In this document: positions 9,929 to 30,948 of the stretch, piece by piece
Layout of the letters: every line of letters begins with the position of its first letter
Position numbering within the stretch: the first letter of the stretch is position 1
Origin: Trichodesmium erythraeum IMS101
GTDB lineage: Bacteria; Cyanobacteriota; Cyanobacteriia; Cyanobacteriales; Microcoleaceae
Reading direction: 5' to 3'
Assembly: GCF_000014265.1 (NCBI RefSeq)
Contig: NC_008312.1
Location: 4,560,001 to 4,592,000 of the forward strand
Length of the DNA stretch: 32,000 nt
Translations under genes and position numbers: made by a program
The notes under the pieces: model-generated
Told to the model about the DNA's origin: nothing
The model's input: only the letters and a program-made list of their open reading frames with translations
Database searches by the model: none

Positions 9929-11089
9929 TTTTTATCAGTAGATTTTTAAGTAAACAATCGTGGATTAATATTCCACCAATTAATTGACTATAGATAGCAG
10001 ATTTAAAGTACGTGATAAACAAATATTAATAATACAACCTTTGTGGGACAAATATCTTCTTTAGCACAACTATAAATTACTGAAATAAAATCTGCTGTAG
10101 ACTGACAAATTTTTAAGGCAAGTAAGTAAATTTTTCACTATTAAGTTATTTTGTAGTAATTAAAAGTTTATATTTTAACTGATATAAATCTTATTTTTAC
10201 CAGTCAAACCTATCCAGTTAACGGTATTTTAATCAGATTAAAACTCATATTTAATTTCTCCTTTCACTATAATAATTGTTTAAGGGATAATTTTTTTTTT
10301 GTAATTTTTCTACTGTTTACTCAGATTGATCTCTAGTTTTTTTATTTTCATTTTTGATATACATTCTCATGAAATTATAACTTTTCCCTTTTTCTTGTGC
10401 CACAACAACTAACAACATATTTGCTATACTCACTGAATCGGTTATGAACACAAATATTTATTTAATTTTTTAACCTGTTAATATCAATTATATTAGTAGT
10501 TTGTTAAAAATTAGATAAACTACAAAACAATTATTTGAATCTAATATGATAAGTTTTGCTATCTATCCTTGCTTATATGTTATAAGGAATTAGTTATTTT
10601 GTTTCTAGTTACTAAAATTGTACTGTTACTTATTAAATATTAATAATATATCTATTAATTCATCTTAATTATCATTAATTAATAGTTATGATAATATTGT
10701 ATATAGATTTGTTTCGGCTAATAAATACACTTGATCAATAATGTGTTTATAGATTTACAGCAACAAACTTAGCATAAGTAATGTATATTTGAGATATGAA
10801 CTTCGTTTGAGTAATAAATCATACATATTAAAATAAAATCCAAGAATGTAAGTTAAAATATGAGTTTTAGTAGGATATTATCTTAACTATATCTACTCTA
10901 CAGAACTTACACTTAAGATCTGAACTTACTATTAATTAAAAACTTTACCTGGCAAGCAGCCCACCACAAGAGAGCATAAGAGAGTTTTTCCTAGTATGAA
11001 GAATGGCGATCTAGTTTCAAACTCATTTGTCAATAAATATAATCATAATTAAATCATTAACCTACTCCTCTAAAATAAGTGGAGCTGGG

Positions 11090-16165: not shown

Positions 16166-17068
16166 TTACATATTAATCATTTTAGCTAACCAATCTAAAA
16201 TCAAAGAGTTAACTATTGTAGGCCTTTCATCATGGGCACAATGACCTGTGTTTGGTATGGGTTCAAATTGAATAACTCCACTTTTGTCTGCTAAGTCTTG
16301 ATAAATTTGGGCACCAGATATTGGTGTCCAAGGGTCTTTTTCTCCCCAGATCACTAACAATGGAGCTTTAATTTTTGGTAACAATTCTGAGGGATGAGGT
16401 CCAGCCGGTGCGGTGAGAATTGAAGCAAAAACTTTTTGGGCTCCAGCATCGCAAGAGGGACGATGAATTATTTCTACTAATTCTTCTGTGACAGCTTCTT
16501 TATTTATATAGACTTGTTTGAGAGTATTACGGATGCGATGTTTTTGACGGACTTGGTTAAAAATAAATGGTCCTAAAACTGGGGAGCTTACTAATTTGGT
16601 AAACATCCCCATGATGAATCTTAGGGGCAGATTTAATTCTTGGGGTCGATGGTTTAAACCTCCTGCACAATTAATGAGAATTCCTCCTGTGGCAATTTCT
16701 GGGTAACTCGCTAGTATCATTAGACTGAGTAATGCACCTATTGAATTGCCTACAAAGACAGTAGGTTGGCGAATATGTGCGCTCCAGAAGTCGTATATTA
16801 GTTCTTCCCAGAGTTCCATTGAATAATCTATGGAAGGCTTAGAAGATGCTCCAAATCCTAGTAAGTCCAGGGCAAATACTTGGTAACCAGATTTAGCGAG
16901 GAGAGGGATATTATTACGCCAGTGATTTATGGATGCACCAAAACCATGGGTTAATAGTAAAGGTTGTCCAGTTCCCATCATGGTATATTGGATATTATGG
17001 TTTTTCCAACTCCAGTTATACTGCCTTAGCTGGTTATCTAAAGTTGGGTTTGATGTAATTACGTTCAT
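16166..17068 (-). CDS. Alpha/beta-fold hydrolase
   Basis: 300-aa ORF with the HGFGAS oxyanion motif, the nucleophile elbow GNSIGA (G-x-S-x-G), and the C-terminal catalytic-His region NTGHCAHDERP. Confidence 0.85.
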   Translation of the reverse strand: MNVITSNPTLDNQLRQYNWSWKNHNIQYTMMGTGQPLLLTHGFGASINHWRNNIPLLAKSGYQVFALDLLGFGASSKPSIDYSMELWEELIYDFWSAHIRQPTVFVGNSIGALLSLMILASYPEIATGGILINCAGGLNHRPQELNLPLRFIMGMFTKLVSSPVLGPFIFNQVRQKHRIRNTLKQVYINKEAVTEELVEIIHRPSCDAGAQKVFASILTAPAGPHPSELLPKIKAPLLVIWGEKDPWTPISGAQIYQDLADKSGVIQFEPIPNTGHCAHDERPTIVNSLILDWLAKMINM

Positions 17069-17713
17069 TTTATAAACTTTTGTAAAGTTGCATAATTATC
17101 ATAATAGAAATATTGGTAAAATAATAGTCTATCTATAGCTTTAAGCGTTTATATATTAGCTATCAGCTCAAGTAAAAACTATTGGCAGTAAAGGATTCTA
17201 ATTTTATCAATTTTCTAAAATTTTTTTGTAGTACTCTAAAATGATCACTAAAAGCTTTAGCTGGCAATAGTTATTCTCATAAACTCCCACTGTCTAGTTT
17301 ATACTCATCTTTCCTGATTTTTTTATTCTCCTAAACTTATTAAAATAGAGCTTTTTAAACTCATTTATAGTTAAGCGATCGCCTTTTATAAAGGTATTGT
17401 TTTGTTTTTGTATAATTCTTCTTAATCATAATGTTATTATAAATATGGTTTATAGCAGGTATATATTAGTATATGCATCTAATAAAAACTATGAATAATA
17501 CTTTATTTAGGTCAAAATTTTTGGCAAATAATTTTATTTATATACAGTTTTATTTTTATTTAGTATAAGCCTGAAATTAATTGATATATACATTATTATT
17601 AAATGAATGCCAGTAAAATATTTTATCTTAATTTTAACGAAAAATAAAAATTGTATACTAACAACAATCTATTTTTTACATATCACTAAAAATATGCTGA
17701 TTGTTTGCCTTTA

Positions 17714-18703
17714 TTATTTTATTTTTTTACGACTTTCAATAATTTCTAAATTAGCCATTCTATCCTTAAGCATCATCCGCACAACATCTGGCATTTTATA
17801 ATCTGCTTTCCATCCTAATTTTTGTTCAGCTTTAATTGGATTTGCCTTACTAACAAAAATATCAGTAGGACGATATAAACCCTTATCTATCTCTACATAA
17901 TCCTGCCAATTTAATCCTACAGCGGCAAAAGCTTCTAATACAAAATCCTGCAAAGAATAAGTTTTTCCAGTAGCAATTATATAATCATCTGGTTTATCTT
18001 GCTGTAACATTAAAAACATTGCTTTTACATATTCTGGTGCCCAACCCCAATCTCTTTGTACTGAAATATTTCCTAAAGATAATTTCTCTTTACTACCTTG
18101 AGCAATTCTAGAAACAACTGAGACAATTTTTTGAGTAACAAAACGTTGAGGTCTGAGAGGAGATTCGTGATTAAATAAAATTCCAGAACAAGCAAATAAA
18201 TTATAAGCTTCTCGATAATTTGCTACTTCCCAAAAAGCTGCAGATTTAGCAACAGCGTAAGGACTTCTAGGGCGAAATGGAGTAATCTCTGTCGCAGTTT
18301 GACCTTCTGTATCCCCAAAACATTCACTGGAACTAGCATTGTATAGTTTAATTTTTTCTCCAATAAAACGAATTGCTTCTAATAAATTCAATGTACCAGT
18401 AGCGATACTTTCTAGTGTTTCTACAGGTTGCTCAAAAGATAAACCTACTGAACTTTGACCAGCTAGATTATAAATTTCATCTGGTTGATATTTGGTTAAT
18501 ATTTGTAAGACACTTCTAAAGTCATTTAAAGACATAGAATCTAACTTTATCTGTTCACGAATACCTAAATAAGATAAGTTTTTAAAGGTAGACATTTGAG
18601 CATCTCTGGAAGTGCCACAAACATTGTAACCTTTTTCGAGTAACAATTTAGCTAAGTAGGAACCATCTTGACCGGAAATTCCTGAAATTAATGCTGTTTT
18701 CAT
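17714..18703 (-). CDS. gmd: GDP-mannose 4,6-dehydratase (short bacterial type)
   Basis: 329-aa ORF with a Rossmann GISGQDGSYLAKLLLEKGY, SSSECFG, the catalytic SPYAVAK (YxxxK) and ILFNHESPLR. It is close over its full length to Pseudomonas-type Gmd as I recall it. Confidence 0.92.
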   Translation of the reverse strand: MKTALISGISGQDGSYLAKLLLEKGYNVCGTSRDAQMSTFKNLSYLGIREQIKLDSMSLNDFRSVLQILTKYQPDEIYNLAGQSSVGLSFEQPVETLESIATGTLNLLEAIRFIGEKIKLYNASSSECFGDTEGQTATEITPFRPRSPYAVAKSAAFWEVANYREAYNLFACSGILFNHESPLRPQRFVTQKIVSVVSRIAQGSKEKLSLGNISVQRDWGWAPEYVKAMFLMLQQDKPDDYIIATGKTYSLQDFVLEAFAAVGLNWQDYVEIDKGLYRPTDIFVSKANPIKAEQKLGWKADYKMPDVVRMMLKDRMANLEIIESRKKIK

Positions 18704-18904: not shown

Positions 18905-21265
18905 TTAATCTTGGATTGTTTCTGCGAGTATTTTCGCCAGATTTTTGATATGAGCTGCATAGTTTTTTGTATTTTTATTTAGTAATATTTTTTCCTGATT
19001 TTCCTGTTTTAATTTTGTTGTTTCTAGTTCTTTTTTAGTTTGCTTAAGTTGGGATTGATAGGTATTGAGTTGTTCCTGATGTTTGGATAACTGAGATTGA
19101 GATTGTTCTAATTCTGCTTGTACTTCATCTAATTGGAATTGAGTAATTTCTAATTCTTCTCGTATATCGTGTAGCTCGGAGTGAGATTTATCTAATTCTG
19201 TTTTAATATTTTGTAATTCTGATTCAGCATTTTTGGCTTTTTCTTGATTTTGCTGAAGTTGAGACTGGGTAGATGTTAATTGCTGGGAAATTTCGTCTCT
19301 TTGTGATTGAGTATTTTCTAATTTTTCCCGAGTTTTTTGTAATTCTGATTCAGCATTTTTGGCTTTTTCTTGATTTTGCTGAAGTTGAGACTGGGTAGAT
19401 GTTAATTGCTGGGAAATTTCGTCTCTTTGTGATTGAGTATTTTCTAATTTTTCCCGAGTTTTTTGTAATTCTGATTCAGCATTTTTGGCTTTTTCTTGAT
19501 TTTGCTGAAGTTGAGACTGGGTAGATGTTAATTGCTGGGAAATTTCGTCTCTTTGTGATTGAGTATTTTCTAATTTTTCCCGAGTTTTTTGTAATTCTGA
19601 TTCAGCATTTTTGGCTTTTTCTTGATTCTGCTGAAGTTGACAGTGGAACTTTTCTAATTCTCCTAATATTTGGTCTCTTTGATATTGGATAGTTTCTAAT
19701 TCTGTTTGATTTTGCTCAAGTTGAGACTGAGTAGATACTAATTTTTGGGAAAGTTCGTTTGTCTGATACTGACTATTTTCTAAGTTTGTCTGGGTTTGCT
19801 GAAGTTGAGATTGTATCTGCCGAAATTGTGCCTCAGACAAAACACTTTTTCCTACTTCATCAATATCTATATCTCGAAAAACAGGAGTACTATTCCAAGG
19901 TTCAAAAGGTATAAGTTTTGCAGTGGAAAAATGGGGGCGAAAGAAATATTTTCCTGTTTGATTTAAGAGGCAAGCACCAAAAGCAAAAGCCGTATTAGAA
20001 ATAGCAACAAAATCACACTTACTCAATAAGAAAAAATTCAGATATTCTAGATTAACCTCTACCTCCAAATCTCGAACCGTTATAGGATTATATTCAGCAA
20101 AATACCCCTTATTTATTTCTTCTATATTATCGCTGGCGATAAATAAAACTGGTTCCTCTAAAGTTTCCCATAAACCATGTAGCCAAATTTTATACCATTC
20201 ATTAGGAGCAACAACAGAATTATTATTTTCATCTGAGTGTAATTGTAAATGTAAACCAATAATAGTTTTGCCAAGAGATCGCAACTTTTCCCAAGCAACT
20301 TTTACTAGAGTTTCTATTTCTGCTACAGGTTGAAATAAAGAACAAAAATATTCTTTGTGATTTCTGTAATAGCTAGTGTGATATAAAAAATATCCTTGAA
20401 TATCTACATTTTTCCAAATTTCTCTATTACCAGGGAAAATTTCATTATTATTCTCAACAACTACAGGCAAATATTCATGAATTTCTCTATCTTTATGTCC
20501 AAACAAATGTTGACCTAACCATTTAGGAATCTCTACAGATAACCTATTTTCTTGAGCATATATTTTTAAGAAAGCATACTGAAAGATTTGATTTCCAAAT
20601 CCGCCATTTTTGCCAAAAGTAGACATAGTAACGACTTGTTTTCTCACATAAAAAGCATTTCCCCAAGATGGGTGAAAAGGTTTTGCTATTGCTACCCTAC
20701 TAAAACCAGTCTGTGCTAAAAATTCATCAATTTTTTCTGCTAAAGCACAACCTTCATAGAGTTCTTCATAATTAACTTTGGTGTAAACTGCATCTATATA
20801 TTTAAGTAGATTAGTTGCTCCTTGTAATGCTAAAAGTTCTGCTCCTTGAATATCAAGATTAAGGATATTAAAATCTTTTGGAGATAACTCTAATTCTTGT
20901 AACAAAGTATCCAGAGTTTTTGCTTCAACTATGAGTTGATGAGCTTCTTTAATATTGGGGTAAATATCTCGATAATATTTCAATGGAAAAATAGAACTAT
21001 TTTGCTCCATTGAGTTAACATATAATCTTACTTTTCCATTTTGATTACTAATAGCATAGTTAACAGCTTGTACATCAATAGATGCTGTGGCGATATTTGC
21101 TTTTAATTTTTCAAATACTATTGGGTTAGCTTCAATAAAGAGAATTTTTGATATGCTTAAATTCTCATAAAGTTTGATATCTTTACCATCATAAGCACCT
21201 ACATGAATAATACCTTTAGGGACGACTGAATTTTGAGTAAAAAGATTCCTTAAGTCTAACTTCAT
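18905..21265 (-). CDS. Three-module fusion protein: FkbM-family methyltransferase (aa 1-~208) + GT11-like alpha-1,2-fucosyltransferase-type domain (aa ~214-470) + Q/E-rich coiled coil (aa ~475-786)
   Basis: 786-aa ORF. The N-terminal part (HVGAYDGKD...FIEANP...LDIQGAE) looks like FkbM/Methyltransf_21. The middle domain has GGFGNQIFQYAF near its start and FLLSKCDFVAISNTAFAFGACLLN near its end, matching the GT11 motifs GGLGNQMFQYAF and ...IIANSTFSWWAAYL. The C-terminal ~310 aa is heptad-like, Q/E/K-rich, and contains exact 42-aa repeats. Confidence 0.8.
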   Translation of the reverse strand: MKLDLRNLFTQNSVVPKGIIHVGAYDGKDIKLYENLSISKILFIEANPIVFEKLKANIATASIDVQAVNYAISNQNGKVRLYVNSMEQNSSIFPLKYYRDIYPNIKEAHQLIVEAKTLDTLLQELELSPKDFNILNLDIQGAELLALQGATNLLKYIDAVYTKVNYEELYEGCALAEKIDEFLAQTGFSRVAIAKPFHPSWGNAFYVRKQVVTMSTFGKNGGFGNQIFQYAFLKIYAQENRLSVEIPKWLGQHLFGHKDREIHEYLPVVVENNNEIFPGNREIWKNVDIQGYFLYHTSYYRNHKEYFCSLFQPVAEIETLVKVAWEKLRSLGKTIIGLHLQLHSDENNNSVVAPNEWYKIWLHGLWETLEEPVLFIASDNIEEINKGYFAEYNPITVRDLEVEVNLEYLNFFLLSKCDFVAISNTAFAFGACLLNQTGKYFFRPHFSTAKLIPFEPWNSTPVFRDIDIDEVGKSVLSEAQFRQIQSQLQQTQTNLENSQYQTNELSQKLVSTQSQLEQNQTELETIQYQRDQILGELEKFHCQLQQNQEKAKNAESELQKTREKLENTQSQRDEISQQLTSTQSQLQQNQEKAKNAESELQKTREKLENTQSQRDEISQQLTSTQSQLQQNQEKAKNAESELQKTREKLENTQSQRDEISQQLTSTQSQLQQNQEKAKNAESELQNIKTELDKSHSELHDIREELEITQFQLDEVQAELEQSQSQLSKHQEQLNTYQSQLKQTKKELETTKLKQENQEKILLNKNTKNYAAHIKNLAKILAETIQD
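19209..19640. repeat. Tandem repeat of a 126-bp unit, ~3.4 copies, in frame inside the 786-aa CDS
   Basis: The units at 19213..19338, 19339..19464 and 19465..19590 are identical base for base when I align them. The fourth, partial unit (19591..19640) has one T>C change at 19628. Each unit encodes LQQNQEKAKNAESELQKTREKLENTQSQRDEISQQLTSTQSQ (42 aa). Older, diverged copies flank the array (e.g. NLENSQYQTNELSQKLVSTQSQLEQNQ). Confidence 0.95.
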
Positions 21266-21355: not shown

Positions 21356-22321
21356 GTGAATGTGTTAGAAAAACAGCAAAAAGCAGCAGAATATTTGGCC
21401 AGAGGTGAATTTGACCTAGCGATCGCTCTATGTCATCAAATTATAGAGGTAAAACCAGATTTTATTCTAGCCTATCAAACTATAGGAAATGCTTGGGAAA
21501 TTCAGGGAAATTTAGAAGCTGCCATGAGTTGGTATGCTCAGGCATTAAAAATTCAACCTAATAACCCAGAATTATACAAAATTACTGGTAATTTATATTC
21601 TCGAAAAAAACAGTGGGATGAAGCGATCGCTTACTATGAAAAGGCTATTAAACTAGAACCGAGTTTAACAGAAGTATATGAAAAGTTAGGGCATATTTTT
21701 AAACAACGTTATCAGGAAAATTTACAAGCAGCATTAAATAATTATCGTCAAGCAATAGAATATTCTCCAGGGGATGAAAGTAATTACTATAAAATCTTAG
21801 AAATTCAGCCATATCATCCAGAAATATGTCGGAAATTGGCGAATACTTTATTGAGCAAAAATAAACTAGGAACGGCAATAATTTTTTATCAAATTGCTTT
21901 AATAACTGAACCAGAAAATTCAGAAATTCATTTTAATCTAGGCAAACTATTGACAACACAAGGTTATTTATTTGAGGCGATATCTGAATATAAACTTGCC
22001 TTAGAGGTAGAGAAAAATAATCCAGATATTTATCTACAACTTGGCATAGTTTTGGCAAAACAAGAAAGGTGGTCAGAAGCGATCGCCTCCTATCGCCGTA
22101 CTATTGAAATTAATCCTAATTTAGATTCTGCTTATAACTATTTAGGAGAAATTTTAACAAAAGTAGGAGAGTTGGAAGAAGGAATTTATATGTTTCAAAA
22201 AGCAATAAATATCAATCCCAACTCATATTTATTTCAGAAAAATTTGGGTGATGCTTTAGCAAAGCAGGGAAAAATAGATGAAGCAAGTGTAGCTTATAGT
22301 CGTGCCATTGAATTAGGGTAA
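21356..22321 (+). CDS. Tetratricopeptide-repeat (TPR) protein
   Basis: 321-aa ORF with a GTG start per the ORF track. It consists almost entirely of 34-aa TPR units (e.g. AYQTIGNAWEIQGNLEAAMSWYAQALKIQPNNP). It is transcribed divergently from the 786-aa gene, 90 bp away. Confidence 0.85.
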   Translation: MNVLEKQQKAAEYLARGEFDLAIALCHQIIEVKPDFILAYQTIGNAWEIQGNLEAAMSWYAQALKIQPNNPELYKITGNLYSRKKQWDEAIAYYEKAIKLEPSLTEVYEKLGHIFKQRYQENLQAALNNYRQAIEYSPGDESNYYKILEIQPYHPEICRKLANTLLSKNKLGTAIIFYQIALITEPENSEIHFNLGKLLTTQGYLFEAISEYKLALEVEKNNPDIYLQLGIVLAKQERWSEAIASYRRTIEINPNLDSAYNYLGEILTKVGELEEGIYMFQKAININPNSYLFQKNLGDALAKQGKIDEASVAYSRAIELG

Positions 22322-22663
22322 AAAGTAAAATAAAAATTTCATCTTTTAATTTACAATATCTGAGGAAATTATATGAAATAGGTTGATTTTTTCTACTGGT
22401 ATATTTGGTATATTGATAGGAGAATAGTCAGATAGGAAAATTCATGGATAGCATCATTTTTTTTTGTATTTGATATTAGATGATATATGTAAGTAGTTAG
22501 GCAAAATTATTTGTGGTAGTTTTGTACAAATCGTGAGATTTTGATAACAATTTAAATAGGCAAGTAATTACTATTATTTGGAAATAAGTTATCTAAATTT
22601 TATCAACGTAAAACTTTATTTGTAAAAGTAATTTATCAAGCTTAAAAAACCAATGCCTCAAGG

Positions 22664-22696
22664 TATGTGTAGTCTGACTTCAGGAAATTGGTATTA
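22664..22696 (+). mobile_element. Solo terminal remnant of the IS630-family element seen at the right edge of the window
   Basis: tatgtgtagtctgacttcaggaaattggtatta matches the reverse complement of 31357..31389 (tatgtgtagtcggactttaggaaattggtatta) at 31 of 33 positions. This corresponds to the last codons of the transposase plus the element tip. Similarity stops abruptly after ...ggtatta in both. Confidence 0.5.
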
Positions 22697-23180
22697 AGTA
22701 GATAAAAAAAAAGGCGTTACATATTTAGCCATAAAACATCTCAAGGGACTTATATAACTAAAATTGGCACTAATTTACAGTTTGATACATAAAGCATAAA
22801 ACTTACCACCCTCTACTTAATTGGAAGATTTTTATGTTTAGATATTCTCTACTTTTATCCTAAATAACTATCATTGAAGCACTAACTGTAGATTTTCATC
22901 AAAGGTCGGGTAGAGAAATAATTACTATTCTTTGGAAACCAGATAATTGAAGTATTTTCTATTTAGCTTTTTCCTATAACTACCTTAAATTAATATACTC
23001 AACGGAACAGGGAGCATATAATATAAAGTATGTAAGAAAGGAAGGAAAAAAATATTTAATTTTGACAATTTATACAAAATAGAAAGTTTTGTTTTATAGA
23101 CGAAAATTAGAGATTAATATATTAATACCATTAGACATCTCCAAAATAGAAAATAAGGTAAAATCATCAAAACCATTTAT

Positions 23181-24556
23181 CGGGACTTTAGTGAAAAAAT
23201 AGTAAAAAAAAGGGTATAATGTATACCTGATATGTATTTTACGTTAATTACTGGCCTGGGAAAAGTTTGATGAAAGAAACAACTTCAGTGGCCATGCCCT
23301 CTTGTTTCCATCGATGGTGCGATCGCTTTAACAATGTCTTTAAAACAAAAGCCCAAAAAACAGGGTTTAGGGAATATATAGGAGGATTACTCTTGAGAAA
23401 GCGATCGAAAAAACTTGTCTCAAATTGCCAACAACACTGTAGGTCACACGTACCACAAATTACGGCATTTTCTAGTTCGAGCAAATTGGTCTGTAGATGC
23501 TGTGAATGAGCGTCGTCTTCAAGTAATGTGGGAACGTCGCCAAACAAAACCTTCTCGATCCTATTGCTTTAATTATAGACGATTCAGGCCACAGAAAAAG
23601 TGGTAATTTTACTGCAGGAGTAGGGCGGCAATATATAGGAGAAATAGGAAAAACAGATAATGGTGTAGTCGTGGTGACAACTCATCTTTATGATGGAGTT
23701 AAAAGTCTACCTTTAGACATAGCTTTGTATCAGAAAGCTGATTCTTTTCCAAAAGGAAAAAAAGACCCAGAATTTGTCAAGAAACCAGACGAGTGCAATG
23801 TCTCTAGTAGATCAATGTTTGTCCAGAGGACACCAACCAGAAATTGTGTTAATTGAAATTTGGCTATGGTAACAATACATCATTCTTAAATCAACTAGAG
23901 AAAAGAAGTTTAACTTATATAGGAGGATTAGCTAAAAATCGAAAAGTCATCATTAAAAAACAAGATGACATTAAAGAGGAAATTAGATTAGACAAGCTGG
24001 CAGAAAGTATACCTCAGAAAGCTTTCAACTTAGTTCAACTAAGTACAAAAAATGCTAGAGAAGTTTGGGTAGCTACATTAGAAGTAGAAATATCTAGGAT
24101 GTCAGGTCAAAAAACTATAGCTATCGTTATGAATGCTAAAAGTTTTTCTGAGGCCACTGATATTAACTATTATATCACTAATAGAGAAGACAAATATGTA
24201 ACTCCTGAGTGGATATATTCTACTTATTCTCAAAGAAATTGGGTGGAAGTTTTCTACAGGGAAGCCAAAGGATGGTTAGGATTAAGAGAATATCAAGTCA
24301 GAGATAAAATCAGCCTTAAAAGGCATTTTATTTTAGTATTTTGTGCTTATACATTTATTATCTGGCATCAGTTAACAGGAGGTATAAGAAGGCGTTGGGC
24401 TAACAAACCATTAAATACGTTTACTGATACTTTAGAAGCATTTCGTACCGCAATATCTTATCGTTTTGTTGAGTGGTTAGATGAAAACATCGACGTATTT
24501 ACCGCTCATAAAGAGAGTTTAGGGTTTGTTTGGGCTTGAAATTTGCTAAAGTCCCG
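23181..24556 (+). mobile_element. IS701-family insertion sequence, copy A (1376 bp)
   Basis: Terminal inverted repeats are CGGGACTTTAG(t)gAAA at the left and TTTgCTAAAGTCCCG at the right. The internal transposase fragments show the IS701-type IIDDSGHRKSGNFTAGVGRQYIGEIGKTDNG block and the Y(2)R(3)E(6)K signature (YSQRNWVEVFYREAK). The flanks are TTAT on the left and TTAG on the right. Confidence 0.9.
23267..24539 (+). pseudogene. IS701-family DDE transposase, disrupted by at least 3 frameshifts (copy A)
   Basis: The coding potential is split over the ORFs 23267..23509, 23415..23606, 23671..23856 and 23853..24539, which use three different frames. One extra base lies in ...GGLLL(a)ESDRKNLSQIANN. 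There is a shift before ALIIDDSGH. A further shift falls exactly where relatives read VLIDAGYG, giving VLIEIW.../KFGYGNN here. Confidence 0.8.
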
Positions 24557-24743
24557 TTAGGAAATTCTAATTCATTTTTAAGCGTGATATGAAATACGAA
24601 CAATTTGAAGTCTTACTTAAGTATAGCTTTAATGCATGATAATTGGCATAAGAGCTAAATAATTACCATTCTACTTTTTACTTTTTCCTTGTTCTTGACC
24701 TTTGCTATAATGCGCTATTCGTGCAGTATTACTATTAGATTAA

Positions 24744-25874
24744 ATGCCTATAAACAATTTTCCCAAAGTTACTGTTTGTTTGCCTACTTATAACTCTGGA
24801 GAATTTCTTAGATATGCAATAGACAGTATTCTTGAACAGACATTTACAGATTTTGAGCTGATTATTTCTGATGACTGTTCTACTGATAATACTCCAGAAA
24901 TTATTAGGAGTTATTTGGAGAAAGATAGTAGAATTCAATACTTACAAAATTCTCACAACTTAGGACTTTTTCCTAATTGGAATCGTTGTTTAGAATCTGC
25001 TTCTGGAGAATATATTACTGTCTTTGCTCAGGATGATGTGATGTTGCCAAAAAATTTAGAGCAAAAGGTAAAAATTCTAGAAAAATACCAAAATGTTGGT
25101 TTAGTTACTTCCTCTATTATGGTGGTGGATAGTGATAATAATTATTTGAATTGGGATTGGGCAAATTATGATGAGGATAGCTTAGTTAATGGTGAGGAAT
25201 GGGTTAAGAAAAATTTGGGAAAAGCTAATCCTATTTGTTGTCCGTTTGTATTGATTAGAAGATATATTTTAGAAAAAGTTGGTGGAAAATTTAATGACAA
25301 TTATCTTTTTGCTGGAGATTTAGAATTATGGTTAAGAATTGCTTTGGTTGCTGATTTGTATTTTGTTAAAGAAATCTTGGGATATTATCGCTGGCATAAA
25401 GAAAATAAAACTCATAGTTTTAATGATTTTGATCAGGTTAAGGAACATTTACAAATTTGTAGTAATTTAATTGATAGTTTAAATTTATCAGATTTAGAAT
25501 TAAATTATTGGGAGACTGAGGTGTTATCTCGAACTGTTAAATGGGTTAGTTATTATCGAATTTATCGTCATTTAGAAATTTCAAATTTTGATGAAGCATT
25601 AAAATTATGTGAGTTACTGGAAAGTTGGCGAGGTAGGTCGGGAAAATTAGGTATTTCTGTGCAGGAATTAGGTACTAGAATACAGAAAATTTTGCAAGTA
25701 AATTCTCGCCTCCATTCAGAGATTAATGAATATAGTACCTGGGTAAATAATCTTGAGGGAAAAAATTCTGCTTTAGAAAGAGAAAAATCTTGGCTAGAAT
25801 CTCAGGTAAAAGCTTGGATGCAAACTGCACAAAAGTATTATCATAAAATAAAAGAAAGTGGGAATTGTTTATAG
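24744..25874 (+). CDS. Family-2 glycosyltransferase (GT2) with a non-catalytic C-terminal extension ending in a coiled-coil-like segment
   Basis: 376-aa ORF. The N-terminus VTVCLPTYNSGEFLRYAIDSILEQTFTDFELIISDDCSTDNT and the FAQDD (DxD-like) motif are classic GT-A/GT2. The C-terminal residues NEYSTWVNNLEGKNSALEREKSWLESQVKAWMQTAQKY are heptad-like. Confidence 0.9.
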   Translation: MPINNFPKVTVCLPTYNSGEFLRYAIDSILEQTFTDFELIISDDCSTDNTPEIIRSYLEKDSRIQYLQNSHNLGLFPNWNRCLESASGEYITVFAQDDVMLPKNLEQKVKILEKYQNVGLVTSSIMVVDSDNNYLNWDWANYDEDSLVNGEEWVKKNLGKANPICCPFVLIRRYILEKVGGKFNDNYLFAGDLELWLRIALVADLYFVKEILGYYRWHKENKTHSFNDFDQVKEHLQICSNLIDSLNLSDLELNYWETEVLSRTVKWVSYYRIYRHLEISNFDEALKLCELLESWRGRSGKLGISVQELGTRIQKILQVNSRLHSEINEYSTWVNNLEGKNSALEREKSWLESQVKAWMQTAQKYYHKIKESGNCL

Positions 25875-26453
25875 GTAAATTAGATTAAATTTTAGGTATT
25901 GATACTAAGTCAATCATAAAAAATAGTAAGATTAAAGACCTCGACAGAATCAATTTCAAATTTGGAGGAAGTAGGTAAAAGTTTTTAATTAGTAGGTGTT
26001 GTATTTGATGGGAATTTTTATACATTAATACTATTTTTTTATAAAACTTTAGTTATTCAATAATTGACAAAAAGGGAATAACTATTTTGCGGGATGAATC
26101 ATCTTGAATTGTGTTAATTTTAGGTAGTTTTGTACGAAGGTTATAGCAACGTACCTACCTATTCCTCTACTCCTCTACTCTCCTACTCAATAACCAAATG
26201 GTATTGGGGGGGTTCAGAAAAAATATCAAAGTATAAAGTGATTTTCACGCTCAAGCATTACTTTTGATAAATAGACATCTCCAAAAATACTTAAACGCTT
26301 ATACTAACTATTTTTAGTGGAGCGTTAGCTCACCTTGAAGATAGTTAATTTGTACAGTTTTATGGGTATCAGAGATATTTCGTGTTACTAATTCAAATAT
26401 TTATTAGACTTTTATTTATTATTTTTATCTCAGTTTTTGATGATTTTTACTAA

Positions 26454-27829
26454 CGGGACTTTAGTGAAAAAATAGTAAAAAAAAGGGTATAATGTATACC
26501 TGATATGTATTTTACGTTAATTACTGGCCTGGGAAAAGTTTGATGAAAGAAACAACTTCAGTGGCCATGCCCTCTTGTTTCCATCGATGGTGCGATCGCT
26601 TTAACAATGTCTTTAAAACAAAAGCCCAAAAAACAGGGTTTAGGGAATATATAGGAGGATTACTCTTGAGAAAGCGATCGAAAAAACTTGTCTCAAATTG
26701 CCAACAACACTGTAGGTCACACGTACCACAAATTACGGCATTTTCTAGTTCGAGCAAATTGGTCTGTAGATGCTGTGAATGAGCGTCGTCTTCAAGTAAT
26801 GTGGGAACGTCGCCAAACAAAACCTTCTCGATCCTATTGCTTTAATTATAGACGATTCAGGCCACAGAAAAAGTGGTAATTTTACTGCAGGAGTAGGGCG
26901 GCAATATATAGGAGAAATAGGAAAAACAGATAATGGTGTAGTCGTGGTGACAACTCATCTTTATGATGGAGTTAAAAGTCTACCTTTAGACATAGCTTTG
27001 TATCAGAAAGCTGATTCTTTTCCAAAAGGAAAAAAAGACCCAGAATTTGTCAAGAAACCAGACGAGTGCAATGTCTCTAGTAGATCAATGTTTGTCCAGA
27101 GGACACCAACCAGAAATTGTGTTAATTGAAATTTGGCTATGGTAACAATACATCATTCTTAAATCAACTAGAGAAAAGAAGTTTAACTTATATAGGAGGA
27201 TTAGCTAAAAATCGAAAAGTCATCATTAAAAAACAAGATGACATTAAAGAGGAAATTAGATTAGACAAGCTGGCAGAAAGTATACCTCAGAAAGCTTTCA
27301 ACTTAGTTCAACTAAGTACAAAAAATGCTAGAGAAGTTTGGGTAGCTACATTAGAAGTAGAAATATCTAGGATGTCAGGTCAAAAAACTATAGCTATCGT
27401 TATGAATGCTAAAAGTTTTTCTGAGGCCACTGATATTAACTATTATATCACTAATAGAGAAGACAAATATGTAACTCCTGAGTGGATATATTCTACTTAT
27501 TCTCAAAGAAATTGGGTGGAAGTTTTCTACAGGGAAGCCAAAGGATGGTTAGGATTAAGAGAATATCAAGTCAGAGATAAAATCAGCCTTAAAAGGCATT
27601 TTATTTTAGTATTTTGTGCTTATACATTTATTATCTGGCATCAGTTAACAGGAGGTATAAGAAGGCGTTGGGCTAACAAACCATTAAATACGTTTACTGA
27701 TACTTTAGAAGCATTTCGTACCGCAATATCTTATCGTTTTGTTGAGTGGTTAGATGAAAACATCGACGTATTTACCGCTCATAAAGAGAGTTTAGGGTTT
27801 GTTTGGGCTTGAAATTTGCTAAAGTCCCG
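26454..27829 (+). mobile_element. IS701-family insertion sequence, copy B (1376 bp), same orientation as copy A
   Basis: It appears identical to copy A over its full length at an offset of 3273 bp, and all ORF-track translations are identical. It is flanked by a perfect 4-bp direct repeat, CTAA (26450..26453 and 27830..27833). Confidence 0.92.
26540..27812 (+). pseudogene. IS701-family DDE transposase, disrupted by the same frameshifts (copy B)
   Basis: The ORFs 26540..26782, 26688..26879, 26944..27129 and 27126..27812 translate identically to their copy-A counterparts. Confidence 0.8.
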
Positions 27830-28812: not shown

Positions 28813-30948
28813 ATGAATCTTTCTAAGACAGCCATCTTAACCCTTACTGCCCTCAGTTCCCAAAATTTAGCTACAGAGGCAAAAGTTACTCCTAATACTA
28901 ATCCATATTTTCAGACAACTGCACCAGAGAATATTAATCTTACTAACTCTATTAATGTTATTACTGTGCCTTCCACAAAATCAATTAGCCCCCCAGAAAT
29001 ATTAGTCAGCCAAGCCTATAATAACCTTAACCTTAAGACTACTTTATCAACTCCAAATATACATCAAATTAAAAGAACTTTAAACAATAGTTGGTTAGGG
29101 AAAATAGTAAAGTTTTCAGCAAAAAATAATTATCAATTCCAGCAATTTGCTGAACAAATGGCTTTAAAAACAGATTTAGAATCAGAAGCTAGTCTCAATC
29201 TTAATCCTACCCTAACTTTATTGAATACTTTATTATTAGTTGCAACTTTATTACCTCCTATAACTATAGGTTTTTTTTGGCTCATCAGAAGATTGGTAAT
29301 TAAAGAATTAGTAGGTGAAGTTAATAAGAGGTTAACAAAAATAAGTCAATTAGAATTAAGTCTGAATCAATCTCAAAAATTATTTACTGAATTAGAGAGT
29401 CATATAGTGACTGCAAAACAATCAATTGATTTTCTGCATCAAGAAGCTAAGATATCAAAATCATCTGTAGAACAAATAGAAGTTCTGAAGTCTCAGTTTT
29501 TAATGCAACTGCAAGTGATTATTTCTGAGGCTCAAGAAGCCAAACATCAAGCTATTCAAGAAATTAATTATTCTGTCAATTCAGAAACTAAATCTGTTAA
29601 AAATACCCAGAAATTAAAATCCTCTGAAAAGCAGCCTACTATGATTGCTGATGATTATTTTAAACTAGGAGAAAAACAATTTTATGATGGTCAATATAAT
29701 CAAGCTTTAGCAAATTTTGAAAAAGCTATTTCTCTTAATTCTTATTTAAGTGAAGCTTGGTTTAAGTCTGGTAATGTATTTGTAAAATTGCACCGTTATT
29801 CTGACGCTCTTGCTGCTTACGATCATGCTATTGCAATTCATTCTGATAGATTTGAATATTGGTTTAATCGTGGCAATGTATTTGTCAAGTTAGAACGTTA
29901 TTCTGAGGCATTAGCTTCCTATGATAAAGCTCTTTCTCTTAATCAAAATCATGTAGAAATTTGGCTAAACCGAGGTATTTTATTCAGGAAATTACAACGG
30001 TATAATGAAGCAGTTGTTTCATATCAAAAAGCTATTTTAATCCAGCCTAAAAATGTTGATATTTTGCATAATTTGGGTGCTTTATTAGGAAAGTTAGAGC
30101 GCTATGAAGAAGCAATCACTACTTTTGACCAAGCTCTGAAAATTCAACCAAATAAATTTGAAATTTGGTATAACCGAGGCAATTTACTGGGAAGGATACA
30201 ATCTTTTAACGAGGCAATTAATTCTTATGACAAAGCACTAAAAATTAAACCAGATAGGTATGAAATTTGGTACAACAAAGGTGCTATTTTATGGCAAATA
30301 GAAAAATATCAAGAAGCAGTTAATTGTTACGACCAAGCAATTAATTTAATGCCAGATGATTATGAAGTTTGGCATAATAGAGGAGTAGCTTTAGGTGCTT
30401 TGGAAAAGTATCAGAAAGCAGTTAATTCTTATGATAAAGCAATTAAAATTTACCCCCAATGTTATCAAGCTTTTATCGGTAAAGCAGAAACATTATTGAA
30501 GTTAGAACAATATGAGGAAGCTTTAAGTTCTTGTAATCATGCTATTGCTATTAAAAAGGAACGTTATGAAGGTTGGTTATGTCAAGGTCGGGTATTAGAA
30601 AAATTGACAAGTTATGAAGAAGCTTTGATGGCTTATGATCAAACAATTGCTATTAATGATAATAGTTATGAAGCTTGGGCAAGAAAAGGTATGGTCTTAG
30701 AAAAAATTAAACGCTATCAAGAAGCTTTAATGTGTTATGACCGGGCTATTGCGATTAAACCGAATGATTCAGAATCTCAGCTAAAACGTCGTAAATTATT
30801 GTCAGAATTACAAACAGAAGGAATTTTCACTGAGGCAAATAAATATAATTTACAACTCAATTTAGATGTTAGTAATAACCAAGATAAAAAACTCAAAAAA
30901 AATCAAAAAAATTATCCGTATCTTGCACAGAAGGGAAGAAAGAGCTAA
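28813..30948 (+). CDS. Membrane-anchored coiled-coil + TPR protein (11 contiguous TPR units)
   Basis: 711-aa ORF. It has a hydrophobic N-terminus (TAILTLTALSS) and a clear TM helix, LTLLNTLLLVATLLPPITIGFFWLI, followed by RRLVIK. A ~100-aa coiled-coil-like segment comes next. Then 11 back-to-back 34-aa TPRs with the consensus YEIWYNRG..L.KL.RY.EA..SYDKAI.I.P, followed by a Lys-rich tail. Confidence 0.85.
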   Translation: MNLSKTAILTLTALSSQNLATEAKVTPNTNPYFQTTAPENINLTNSINVITVPSTKSISPPEILVSQAYNNLNLKTTLSTPNIHQIKRTLNNSWLGKIVKFSAKNNYQFQQFAEQMALKTDLESEASLNLNPTLTLLNTLLLVATLLPPITIGFFWLIRRLVIKELVGEVNKRLTKISQLELSLNQSQKLFTELESHIVTAKQSIDFLHQEAKISKSSVEQIEVLKSQFLMQLQVIISEAQEAKHQAIQEINYSVNSETKSVKNTQKLKSSEKQPTMIADDYFKLGEKQFYDGQYNQALANFEKAISLNSYLSEAWFKSGNVFVKLHRYSDALAAYDHAIAIHSDRFEYWFNRGNVFVKLERYSEALASYDKALSLNQNHVEIWLNRGILFRKLQRYNEAVVSYQKAILIQPKNVDILHNLGALLGKLERYEEAITTFDQALKIQPNKFEIWYNRGNLLGRIQSFNEAINSYDKALKIKPDRYEIWYNKGAILWQIEKYQEAVNCYDQAINLMPDDYEVWHNRGVALGALEKYQKAVNSYDKAIKIYPQCYQAFIGKAETLLKLEQYEEALSSCNHAIAIKKERYEGWLCQGRVLEKLTSYEEALMAYDQTIAINDNSYEAWARKGMVLEKIKRYQEALMCYDRAIAIKPNDSESQLKRRKLLSELQTEGIFTEANKYNLQLNLDVSNNQDKKLKKNQKNYPYLAQKGRKS

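Follow-up and report, generated by a model that had tools for sequence, protein, structure and literature searches.

A degenerate GT11-like domain between an FkbM methyltransferase and a coiled-coil stalk in Tery_2946 of Trichodesmium erythraeum

Coiled coils have been described as "a characteristic marker" of glycan terminators, in which the terminator sits at the coil's distal end (PMC11231755). In the trimeric WbdD, a methyltransferase (residues 1-210) is followed by a kinase (211-459) and a coiled-coil C-terminal domain (460-708) (PMC3482155); the opposite end, away from the terminator, carries an amphipathic C-terminal helix and a site for recruiting the polymerase (PMC11231755). In the rhizobial Nod factor, fucosylation by NodZ is followed by methylation of the added fucose by NoeI (PMC3557214). 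Here we describe Tery_2946, a gene of the cyanobacterium Trichodesmium erythraeum IMS101 located at 18905..21265 on the minus strand of a 32,000-nucleotide stretch (positions 4,560,001 to 4,592,000 of contig NC_008312.1; hereafter, the window). According to the listing of open reading frames (ORFs), it encodes 786 aa, the end coordinate including the stop codon.

The existing annotation of Tery_2946 is only "methyltransferase FkbM family" or "FkbM family methyltransferase", a database label that the present analysis corrects. In the literature, nothing was found on FkbM together with a fucosyltransferase, nor on Tery_2946, Tery_2945, Q110G4 or WP_011612468. The best explanation of our data, to which we assign a probability of about 0.5, is that the product is a glycan O-methyltransferase that carries a pseudo-glycosyltransferase module on a spacer stalk with a docking helix.

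Three modules and an altered donor site

As a sequence-only reading of the window had proposed, an FkbM domain and a GT11-like domain are joined in one polypeptide with about 310 aa of coiled coil, and we hold this three-module architecture to be close to certain. The ORF is real: its product matches a deposited T. erythraeum IMS101 protein exactly (ABG52110.1 / WP_011612468.1), and intact orthologues, 78-87% identical, are present in Trichodesmium and Okeania. With these orthologues and the identical deposited protein at hand, the earlier concern that a sequencing error might have removed a stop codon between the modules was not borne out. An artefact of any kind, whether a sequencing or assembly error or a pseudogene joining separate genes, has a negligible probability and is effectively refuted. 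The same uninterrupted frame was found in an isolate genome and many metagenome-assembled genomes (MAGs), the ratio of nonsynonymous to synonymous substitution rates (dN/dS) was below 0.4 in every module, and the sequence of the FkbM-GT junction is conserved across dozens of distant fusions. The sole hint of an artefact is the orthologue of Okeania sp. KiyG1, which is split across two contig ends (L003 10001-11032 and L004 1-2268) that overlap by about 195 codons (residues 150-344). L003 stops exactly at the degenerate motif (..HLQSHS). This split is probably an assembly break rather than biology.

The N-terminal module (aa 1-210; 20636..21265, minus strand) is an FkbM-family S-adenosylmethionine (SAM) methyltransferase domain. 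When the profile check suggested earlier was run, both models scored above their cut-offs: Pfam Methyltransf_21 (PF05050) over aa 21-188 (E=2.6e-14; 54.1 bits, cut-off 22.7) and NCBIfam fkbM_fam (TIGR01444; E=2e-18; 67.2 bits, cut-off 37.7). IIHVGAYDG, at aa 19, is the Gly-rich SAM loop; LNLDIQGAE, at aa 135, represents the D-x-[EQ]-G-x-E hallmark. In fusions covering those regions, the FkbM copy directly upstream of a GT11-like domain is always of one subtype (V[IV]H[IV]GAHEG, LNxDIQGAE). A PDB sequence search with the FkbM domain returned no relative, WbdD included.

The middle module (aa 211-470; 19856..20635, minus strand) is a GT11-like member of the fucosyltransferase GT-B superfamily. 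Pfam Glyco_transf_11 (PF01531) gave no match to it, even when the module was searched alone at E<=10, and neither did a PDB sequence search with this domain alone. The proposed GT11-like identity nevertheless stands, because the homologues carry PF01531, the family profile matches FUT8 and the predicted fold matches fucosyltransferases exclusively. Most of the 150 homologues, which are 35-58% identical, have PF01531, and several are named alpha-1,2-fucosyltransferase; three intact relatives scored 40-52 bits against this model (cut-off 23.9). The family profile matched FUT8 weakly (E about 0.0015), aligning GlHlrrgD with FUT8 GVHVRRTDK and YpDfYlLsqcd..isnst with FUT8 ilDihfLSqaD..ctfSS. An AlphaFold2 (AF2) model of the domain, built with 60 sequences, reached a predicted local distance difference test (pLDDT) score of 91.8 and a predicted template modelling (pTM) score of 0.90. 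Among the 50 PDB matches of this model listed by Foldseek, all were FUT8, NodZ, AtFUT1 or POFUT1/2 (48 at E<=0.001), with TM-scores of about 0.6 normalised to the query; FUT8 and NodZ were at the top.

The N-terminal GxGNQxFQYAF motif is retained in the window domain. It lies in MSTFGKNGGFGNQIFQY (20576..20626, minus strand), which contains the family-invariant G8, N12 and Y17 and whose first residue is Met214. The sequence-only reading had placed the codon of this Met correctly at 20626..20624 and had taken it for the fossil start codon of a once-separate gene. We reject the latter proposal, since Met214 is conserved across the family, 47 of 60 members having Met in this column, and since most standalone proteins have 4-14 residues upstream of it ("..VVT" before "MSTLG"), the same ones as precede Met214 in the fusion.

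In the window protein, IGLHLQLHSDEN stands in place of HxRRGD[YF], which confirms the motif loss behind the earlier suggestion that the domain may be inactive. Motif I, H-x-R-R-G-D-[YF] in the family, is degenerate (HLQLHSDEN; 20225..20251) and aligns to FUT8 GVHVRRTDK. According to the profile alignment, motif II is altered as well (YLNFF for Y-x-D-F-Y; 20030..20044), its Asp corresponding to FUT8 Asp453, and so is motif III (AISNTAFAF for AISNSTFSF; 19979..20005), which corresponds to the Ser468/469 region of FUT8 (CTFSS); all three lie on the minus strand. The first Arg of HxRRGD[YF] is present in 108 of the 109 family sequences matching the motif pattern, and alpha2- and alpha6-fucosyltransferases depend critically on the first Arg of HxRRxD (PMC4202792). 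FUT8 binds the pyrophosphate through Arg365, Lys369 and Ser469 and the guanosine through His363 and Asp453, and the R365A change abolishes its activity (PMC7033129). The equivalents of FUT8 Arg365, Asp453 and the Ser468/469 region are all replaced in the window domain.

Outside these motifs the domain is well preserved. It keeps 66 of the 75 family positions that are at least 85% conserved, and eight of the nine deviations lie in the three motifs (R341Q, L342 for R, H343 for G and S344 for D; D410N and Y412F; S425T and S428A). Conserved positions were thus changed in 8 of 14 cases within the motifs compared to 1 of 61 outside (Fisher p=1.5e-6), a value that is weakened by the fact that the motif windows were set with knowledge of where the changes lie. 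Because of this distribution, we conclude that the donor-site loss is specific and not general decay. The three changes also account for the failure of the Pfam model, since in silico repair restored a match: 23.9 bits for PF01531 when motif I was converted to RRGDY, and 32.6 bits when all three motifs were repaired.

Every Trichodesmium and Okeania orthologue is degenerate at motif I, each differently: HLQLHSDEN (window), HLQLPSDEN, HLQLNSDEN, HLQSHSEEN, HLQLHSDKN, and HLKNAP with a 10-residue deletion. At the sequence level, these differences indicate relaxed constraint at that site. The orthologues P0121 and P0012 keep the Asp of motif II, which confines this change to a sub-lineage; the motif III change is common to the orthologue loci L001, L002 and L004 and to P0121. 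The GT-like domain is under purifying selection (dN/dS 0.19-0.36) comparable to that on the FkbM domain (0.17-0.33); values for the C-terminus were 0.27-0.42. Judged by its sequence, the module has been maintained for something other than GDP-sugar transfer, and we consider it probable that it is non-catalytic.

Relatives of the fusion and the coiled-coil stalk

A HMMER search with aa 1-470 against 1.84 billion representatives gave 9643 matches. Dozens of representatives of 50%-identity clusters, 471-2329 aa long, matched contiguously over the FkbM and GT11-like didomain (aa ~3-465), and the view that the modules normally occur as separate proteins had to be given up. The search shows that FkbM-GT11 didomains are a large uncharacterised enzyme module. 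Nearly all of these fusions keep H[LIV]RRGD[YF]; in genome examples, the didomain is combined with GT4, GT17, GT41, TPR or extra FkbM modules, and PF01531 scores above threshold there. Such cyanobacterial and proteobacterial multidomain proteins (e.g., at L005, L006, L008, L011 and L013) resemble Tery_2946 in that the same FkbM subtype precedes a domain of the GT11-like family, with 35-57% identity over aa 3-468. Unlike Tery_2946, they keep HxRRGD[YF] and have no coiled coil or tail, except for P0127 with a C-terminal coil-like segment. The degenerate motif and the coiled coil were found together only in the window's own clade (representative P0121).

In three relatives from Microcoleaceae, P0244 (Microcoleus), P0246 (a MAG) and P0242, an FkbM domain of the Tery_2946 subtype leads straight into a coiled coil with repeats. 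All three end in the tail [KR]xLA[KR][IV][LI]AET[LI], and P0244 and P0246 contain the block SELH..REELE[IL]TQFQLDE[VI]Q.ELE. Since these proteins are without a GT domain, the GT-like module is, by their sequences, dispensable in the lineage. P0244 is encoded between an upstream gene for a TPR-fused modifying enzyme and a downstream GT2 gene, with sulfotransferase genes nearby, and P0246 has the same pattern; P0242 has a phosphomannomutase gene upstream and gmd immediately downstream. At the Microcoleaceae loci L039 and L040, the GT-less relatives are clustered with genes for sulfotransferases (PF13469, PF00685), for TPR-fused modifying enzymes and for GT2s of about 570-600 aa, a hint that filamentous cyanobacteria have a pathway for glycans that are both methylated and sulfated.

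Other members of the family were also observed. Trichodesmium MAGs contain a second FkbM-GT11-like paralogue, 52% identical (L009 1671-3058 and L010 1087-2474), with the motif HLRPIKYDQ, in which the first Arg is kept. In a single frame, this tblastn region has 12-13 stops, and the paralogue is either a pseudogene or frameshifted. The same HLRPIKYDQ motif is carried by a standalone 281-aa cluster (P0021; 142 member sequences). The N-terminus of the GT11-like protein P0004 (L041 10001-11215), MGQGFYVKKAIIRKQQTVTM, is similar to the C-terminal end of the FkbM subtype together with the linker. This protein, whose motif has lost one Arg (HLRLSDY) and whose C-terminus is extended by about 130 aa, is encoded between a TPR protein and a GT2. 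P0004 may be a remnant of a didomain minus its FkbM part.

The C-terminal 316 aa of Tery_2946 contain no Pro and two Gly, and the coil makes up 40% of the protein. Heptad periodicity, AF2 and matches to coiled-coil Pfam and NCBIfam models define a continuous stalk of about 290 aa (aa ~478-765; 18971..19834, minus strand). The 3.5-residue hydrophobic periodicity had a power of 3.31, whereas 2000 shuffles gave at most 1.18; between aa 499 and 722 the heptad register stays constant. A full-length single-sequence AF2 model was helical over aa 478-785; its globular parts were poor (pLDDT 44.8), and it was used only for helicity. The model breaks the helix at 617-631, within a perfect repeat that is helical in its other copies, and we treat this break as a fold-back artefact of the monomer model. 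Periodicity, register and modelled helicity thus agree with the coiled coil predicted earlier.

Within the stalk, a 126-bp unit (42 aa, six heptads) is tandemly repeated in 3.4 copies that are 99% identical (19209..19640, minus strand; detected by TRF), and the copy number differs between strains. Indeed, full-length variants of 702, 744 and 786 aa occur in different Trichodesmium MAGs within the >=90% cluster, in steps of one 42-aa repeat. From PVFRD at the end of the GT-like domain to the SELH block, the orthologue stalks measure 151, 165, 193, 235, 305 and 354 aa, all 4 mod 7. The differences of 14, 28, 49 and 70 aa are not multiples of the 42-aa unit, and the length variation is quantised in heptads.

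The conserved coil block SELHDIREELEITQFQLDEVQAELE (19106..19180, minus strand) was found in all clade orthologues and in the GT-less P0244 and P0246, and its distance from the tail motif is fixed at 80 aa within the clade. The protein ends with a 19-aa amphipathic helix, NYAAHIKNLAKILAETIQD (18908..18964, minus strand), whose motif LA[KR][IV][LI]AET is present in the orthologues, P0242, P0244 and P0246. The hydrophobic moment of this tail helix is 0.48-0.65 (0.62 in the window protein), compared to a maximum of 0.46 for any 14-mer in the coil, and in the orthologues it is preceded by a break with Pro and Asn. No transmembrane segment was detected in Tery_2946. We regard the tail helix as a candidate membrane- or partner-docking element.

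Proposed function and rival explanations

The gene gmd (Tery_2945; ABG52109.1), encoding GDP-mannose 4,6-dehydratase (PF16363, E=4.8e-110), lies at 17714..18703 on the same minus strand, 201 bp downstream of Tery_2946, in agreement with the distance of about 200 bp given before. This linkage is conserved: gmd is also directly downstream in the orthologue loci L001, L002 and L004 and adjoins the gene of the GT-less P0242. That the protein methylates glycans in connection with the gmd pathway is, in our view, somewhat better than an even bet.

According to the explanation that we prefer, Tery_2946 would be a cytoplasmic, oligomeric glycan O-methyltransferase with the N-terminal FkbM domain as its sole catalytic module, most likely methylating a GDP-mannose-derived residue (a 6-deoxyhexose or mannose) of a growing or finished glycan. 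The GT11-like domain would go back to an FkbM-fucosyltransferase didomain that was active; with its GDP-sugar site lost, it would be kept as a pseudo-glycosyltransferase for acceptor-glycan recognition or as a scaffold. The in-phase coil of ~290 residues (roughly 40 nm) would oligomerise the protein and set the distance of the heads from the C-terminal helix, which would dock on the membrane or on a partner such as the neighbouring GT2 or TPR protein. This would amount to a WbdD-like "molecular ruler" plan made from different domains, in which gain or loss of a 42-aa repeat would shift the spacing by ~6 nm per step. The methyltransferase activity and its substrate, the non-catalytic binding role of the GT-like domain, and the ruler and docking function are what we infer here; a function as ruler or terminator, which is argued by analogy, is put forward tentatively.

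Several observations weigh against this explanation. Natural rulers are expected to be length-conserved, and the Tery_2946-type stalk varies more than twofold, although short-read collapse of repeats could explain some of the variation. The FkbM subtype motifs are unusual (His for Asp and Gln for Glu). Moreover, in GT-less relatives the hallmark DIQGAE is altered to DVPRPE (P0242; L043 4735-5985) or NIQGAE (P0246; L040 10001-11218); judging by these sequences, the methyltransferase is possibly not always catalytic in the lineage, and activity is not guaranteed. There is no sequence homology to WbdD or to the ORF6-O7 terminators, the likeness being architectural only. A screen of all 44 sequences for Wzt-like ATPases (Walker-A/LSGGQ) revealed no wzm/wzt-type ABC transporter in the 32 kb of the window, in the regions flanking the orthologues and GT-less relatives, or in the L005-L013 fusion loci. 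In characterised terminator systems, the transporter belongs to the cluster. Finally, the TPR protein next to Tery_2946 and the one beside P0244 share a generic 30% identity, so that no specific conserved partner emerges.

The function first suggested for this gene was that of a bifunctional enzyme, in which a GT11-like domain still active with a changed donor or mechanism adds a 6-deoxyhexose, to be O-methylated next by the FkbM domain. Didomains with intact motifs, the ancestral form, are widespread and probably work in this way, and NodZ and NoeI provide a precedent (PMC3557214). Furthermore, the GT-like domain of Tery_2946 adjoins gmd, is under purifying selection and, among its 66 of 75 conserved positions kept, includes the GxGNQxFQY motif and the His aligned to FUT8 His363. 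Against this, HxRRxD has lost both its Arg residues and its Asp, the Ser-rich motif is altered, in the window lineage the counterpart of FUT8 Asp453 has changed too, and the first Arg is reported to be critical (PMC4202792; PMC7033129). Motif I differs between 86-87% identical orthologues and is partly deleted in P0012, while relatives with the same FkbM domain, coil and tail, one of them with gmd synteny, wholly lack a GT domain. With the equivalents of the FUT8 donor residues replaced and the domain absent from close relatives, the transfer half of this proposal is unlikely, and we judge the bifunctional enzyme as a whole to be improbable. An even smaller probability, of the order of a few percent, goes to a structural, filament-forming coiled-coil protein of a filamentous cyanobacterium with both enzyme-like domains vestigial. 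The large share of coil in the protein, the lost GT-like donor site and the deviating FkbM hallmark of some GT-less relatives would suit such a protein. However, purifying selection on the FkbM and GT-like domains is as strong as on the C-terminus, the window FkbM motifs match the subtype consensus of the fusions covering those regions, and synteny with gmd, phosphomannomutase, GT2 and sulfotransferase genes is conserved.

Closer to our explanation, and differing from it only in the role of stalk length, is an oligomeric or localised methyltransferase in which the coil does no more than multimerise the protein or tether it to a site such as the membrane, the septum or a TPR scaffold; length would be free to drift, as heptad continuity alone would matter. 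Stalks of 151 to 354 aa among close relatives are unlike a length-conserved spacer, and no ABC-transporter or polymerase-terminator context was found in the loci screened. The 99% identity of the repeats suggests recent slippage or recombination over selection for one length. On the other hand, an invariant 80 aa separates the SELH block from the tail, and both are strictly conserved in sequence, which argues for a specific docking geometry, and the topology of N-terminal enzyme, coil and candidate C-terminal anchor is that of known rulers (PMC11231755). We consider a methyltransferase without a ruler rather unlikely, at perhaps one chance in four.

A more specific version of the preferred explanation, which we offer as speculative and doubtful as a whole, is that Tery_2946 and its Okeania and Microcoleaceae relatives form an unrecognised cyanobacterial class of coiled-coil glycan terminators or rulers. 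In such a class, FkbM would cap a deoxyhexose-containing surface glycan, the former fucosyltransferase would read the glycan, and gain or loss of the six-heptad repeat would naturally retune chain length from one Trichodesmium population to another. Trichodesmium fixes nitrogen in the sea and is important on a global scale, while its surface and extracellular glycans are poorly understood. Repeat-tuned chain length, if it exists, could affect colony formation, exopolymer properties, and phage or grazer susceptibility. If the preferred explanation holds, the middle module would be a clear natural case of a glycosyltransferase turned pseudoenzyme, with the donor site erased, the fold under selection and the domain deleted in sister lineages. 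The arrangement of a methyltransferase with an accessory domain on an anchored coiled-coil ruler, which up to now is known from the O-antigen terminators of enterobacteria, would have arisen independently by convergence. The stalks, with 151-354 residues in heptad phase, would provide a natural allelic series for a direct test of the ruler outside engineered E. coli.

Neighbouring genes and comparison with known systems

On the other side of Tery_2946, 90 bp from its start, a 321-aa TPR protein is divergently encoded (21356..22321, plus strand). This neighbour is conserved in L001 (confirmed by Pfam) and L002 (by position and size), and the order TPR, fusion, gmd is kept in Trichodesmium and Okeania. 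TPR-containing proteins are also encoded immediately upstream of the GT-less relatives and of P0004. A 376-aa GT2 glycosyltransferase (24744..25874, plus strand; PF00535, E=2.8e-32) is a possible partner transferase; GT2 genes are also neighbours in L002, L039, L040 and L041.

In the window, the GT2 gene is flanked by two identical copies of an insertion sequence (IS). Direct repeats of at least 300 nt, 100% identical, lie at 23178-23477 and 26451-26750 (spacing 3273), each followed by a 228-aa DDE-transposase-like ORF (23853-24539 and 27126-27812); these pairs (23178-27812) bracket the GT2 gene in a composite-transposon-like arrangement. In Trichodesmium MAG_R02 (L002), the GT2 homologue adjoins the TPR gene without an IS and in the opposite relative orientation. 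Further along, a 711-aa TPR protein is encoded at 28813-30948 (plus strand). An enzyme domain that escaped recognition could be present in its N-terminal 279 aa, which had no Pfam match, as in the methyltransferase and sulfotransferase proteins fused to TPRs beside the GT-less relatives. Very AT-rich stretches occur at 10001-11000 (GC 0.235) and 17001-18000 (GC 0.254), with GC 0.30-0.44 elsewhere, and the window has long non-coding gaps (e.g., 9929-11089 and 22322-23850). A promoter and terminator scan around Tery_2946 gave results at or below shuffle expectation.

Among known glycosyltransferases, the middle module shares the GxGNQxFQYAF motif and the GT-B fold with the GT11 alpha-1,2-fucosyltransferases (FutC, WbsJ, WbwK, FUT1/2) and the GT11/23/37/65/68 superfamily. 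It differs from the GT11 enzymes in that HxRRxD and the Ser-rich motif III are destroyed and PF01531 does not match. Tery_2946 resembles the NodZ and NoeI pair in linking a fucosyltransferase-superfamily enzyme with a methyltransferase, which in the case of NoeI, an FkbM-family member, acts on fucose. Unlike Tery_2946, NodZ and NoeI are separate proteins without a coiled coil, and NodZ is active; by analogy, theirs is likely the logic of the ancestral FkbM-GT11 didomain. Vibrio cholerae RfbT/WbeT is an FkbM-related methyltransferase that modifies the non-reducing terminal sugar of the O-antigen. PF05575 matched the orthologue P0012 and L007; the window protein itself had no PF05575 match, and RfbT is without a GT-like domain or coiled coil.

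The earlier remark that no characterised enzyme with this architecture was known does not hold for the layout, which matches WbdD and other glycan chain terminators, though the domains are non-homologous. In Klebsiella pneumoniae O7 ORF6, O12 WbbB and O4 ORF7, the terminating enzyme is placed at the distal end of an extended coiled coil, and ORF6 has a predicted non-catalytic carbohydrate-binding module (PMC11231755). Orthologues of ORF6-O7-N, one of them cyanobacterial, combine a methyltransferase, an extra domain plus a coiled coil, some ending after the coil; unlike Tery_2946, they have a methyltransferase of the VLE[IL]G[GA]CGG type (canonical ExGxGxG) and a novel kinase domain (PMC11231755). 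Given this different methyltransferase motif, we rejected orthology of Tery_2946 to the ORF6-O7-N terminators.

The closest counterpart is WbdD (E. coli O9a/O8; K. pneumoniae O3/O5), in which a methyltransferase of ~210 aa, a second domain of ~250 aa, a long coil and a C-terminal docking region follow each other; Tery_2946 has nearly the same layout, its tail helix being the candidate for the docking region. In contrast to WbdD, with which it has no detectable sequence homology, Tery_2946 has an FkbM-type instead of a canonical ExGxGxG class-I methyltransferase, a probably dead fucosyltransferase fold in place of the kinase, no wzm/wzt nearby and a stalk of naturally variable length. Membership in the polymerase-terminator class is not established by this analogy, and our claim is that Tery_2946 may "work like" such a terminator, not that it "is a" terminator. 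Because the FkbM domain has no PDB match, the ORF6-O7-N methyltransferase is different and the loci examined have no Wzt-like ATPase, the plan of Tery_2946 appears to be architecturally convergent with that of WbdD-type chain terminators. With FkbM at the N-terminus and an anchor-like tail at the C-terminus, its sequence has the terminator-type placement, and, like WbdD, it is probably linked to GDP-mannose-derived glycans.

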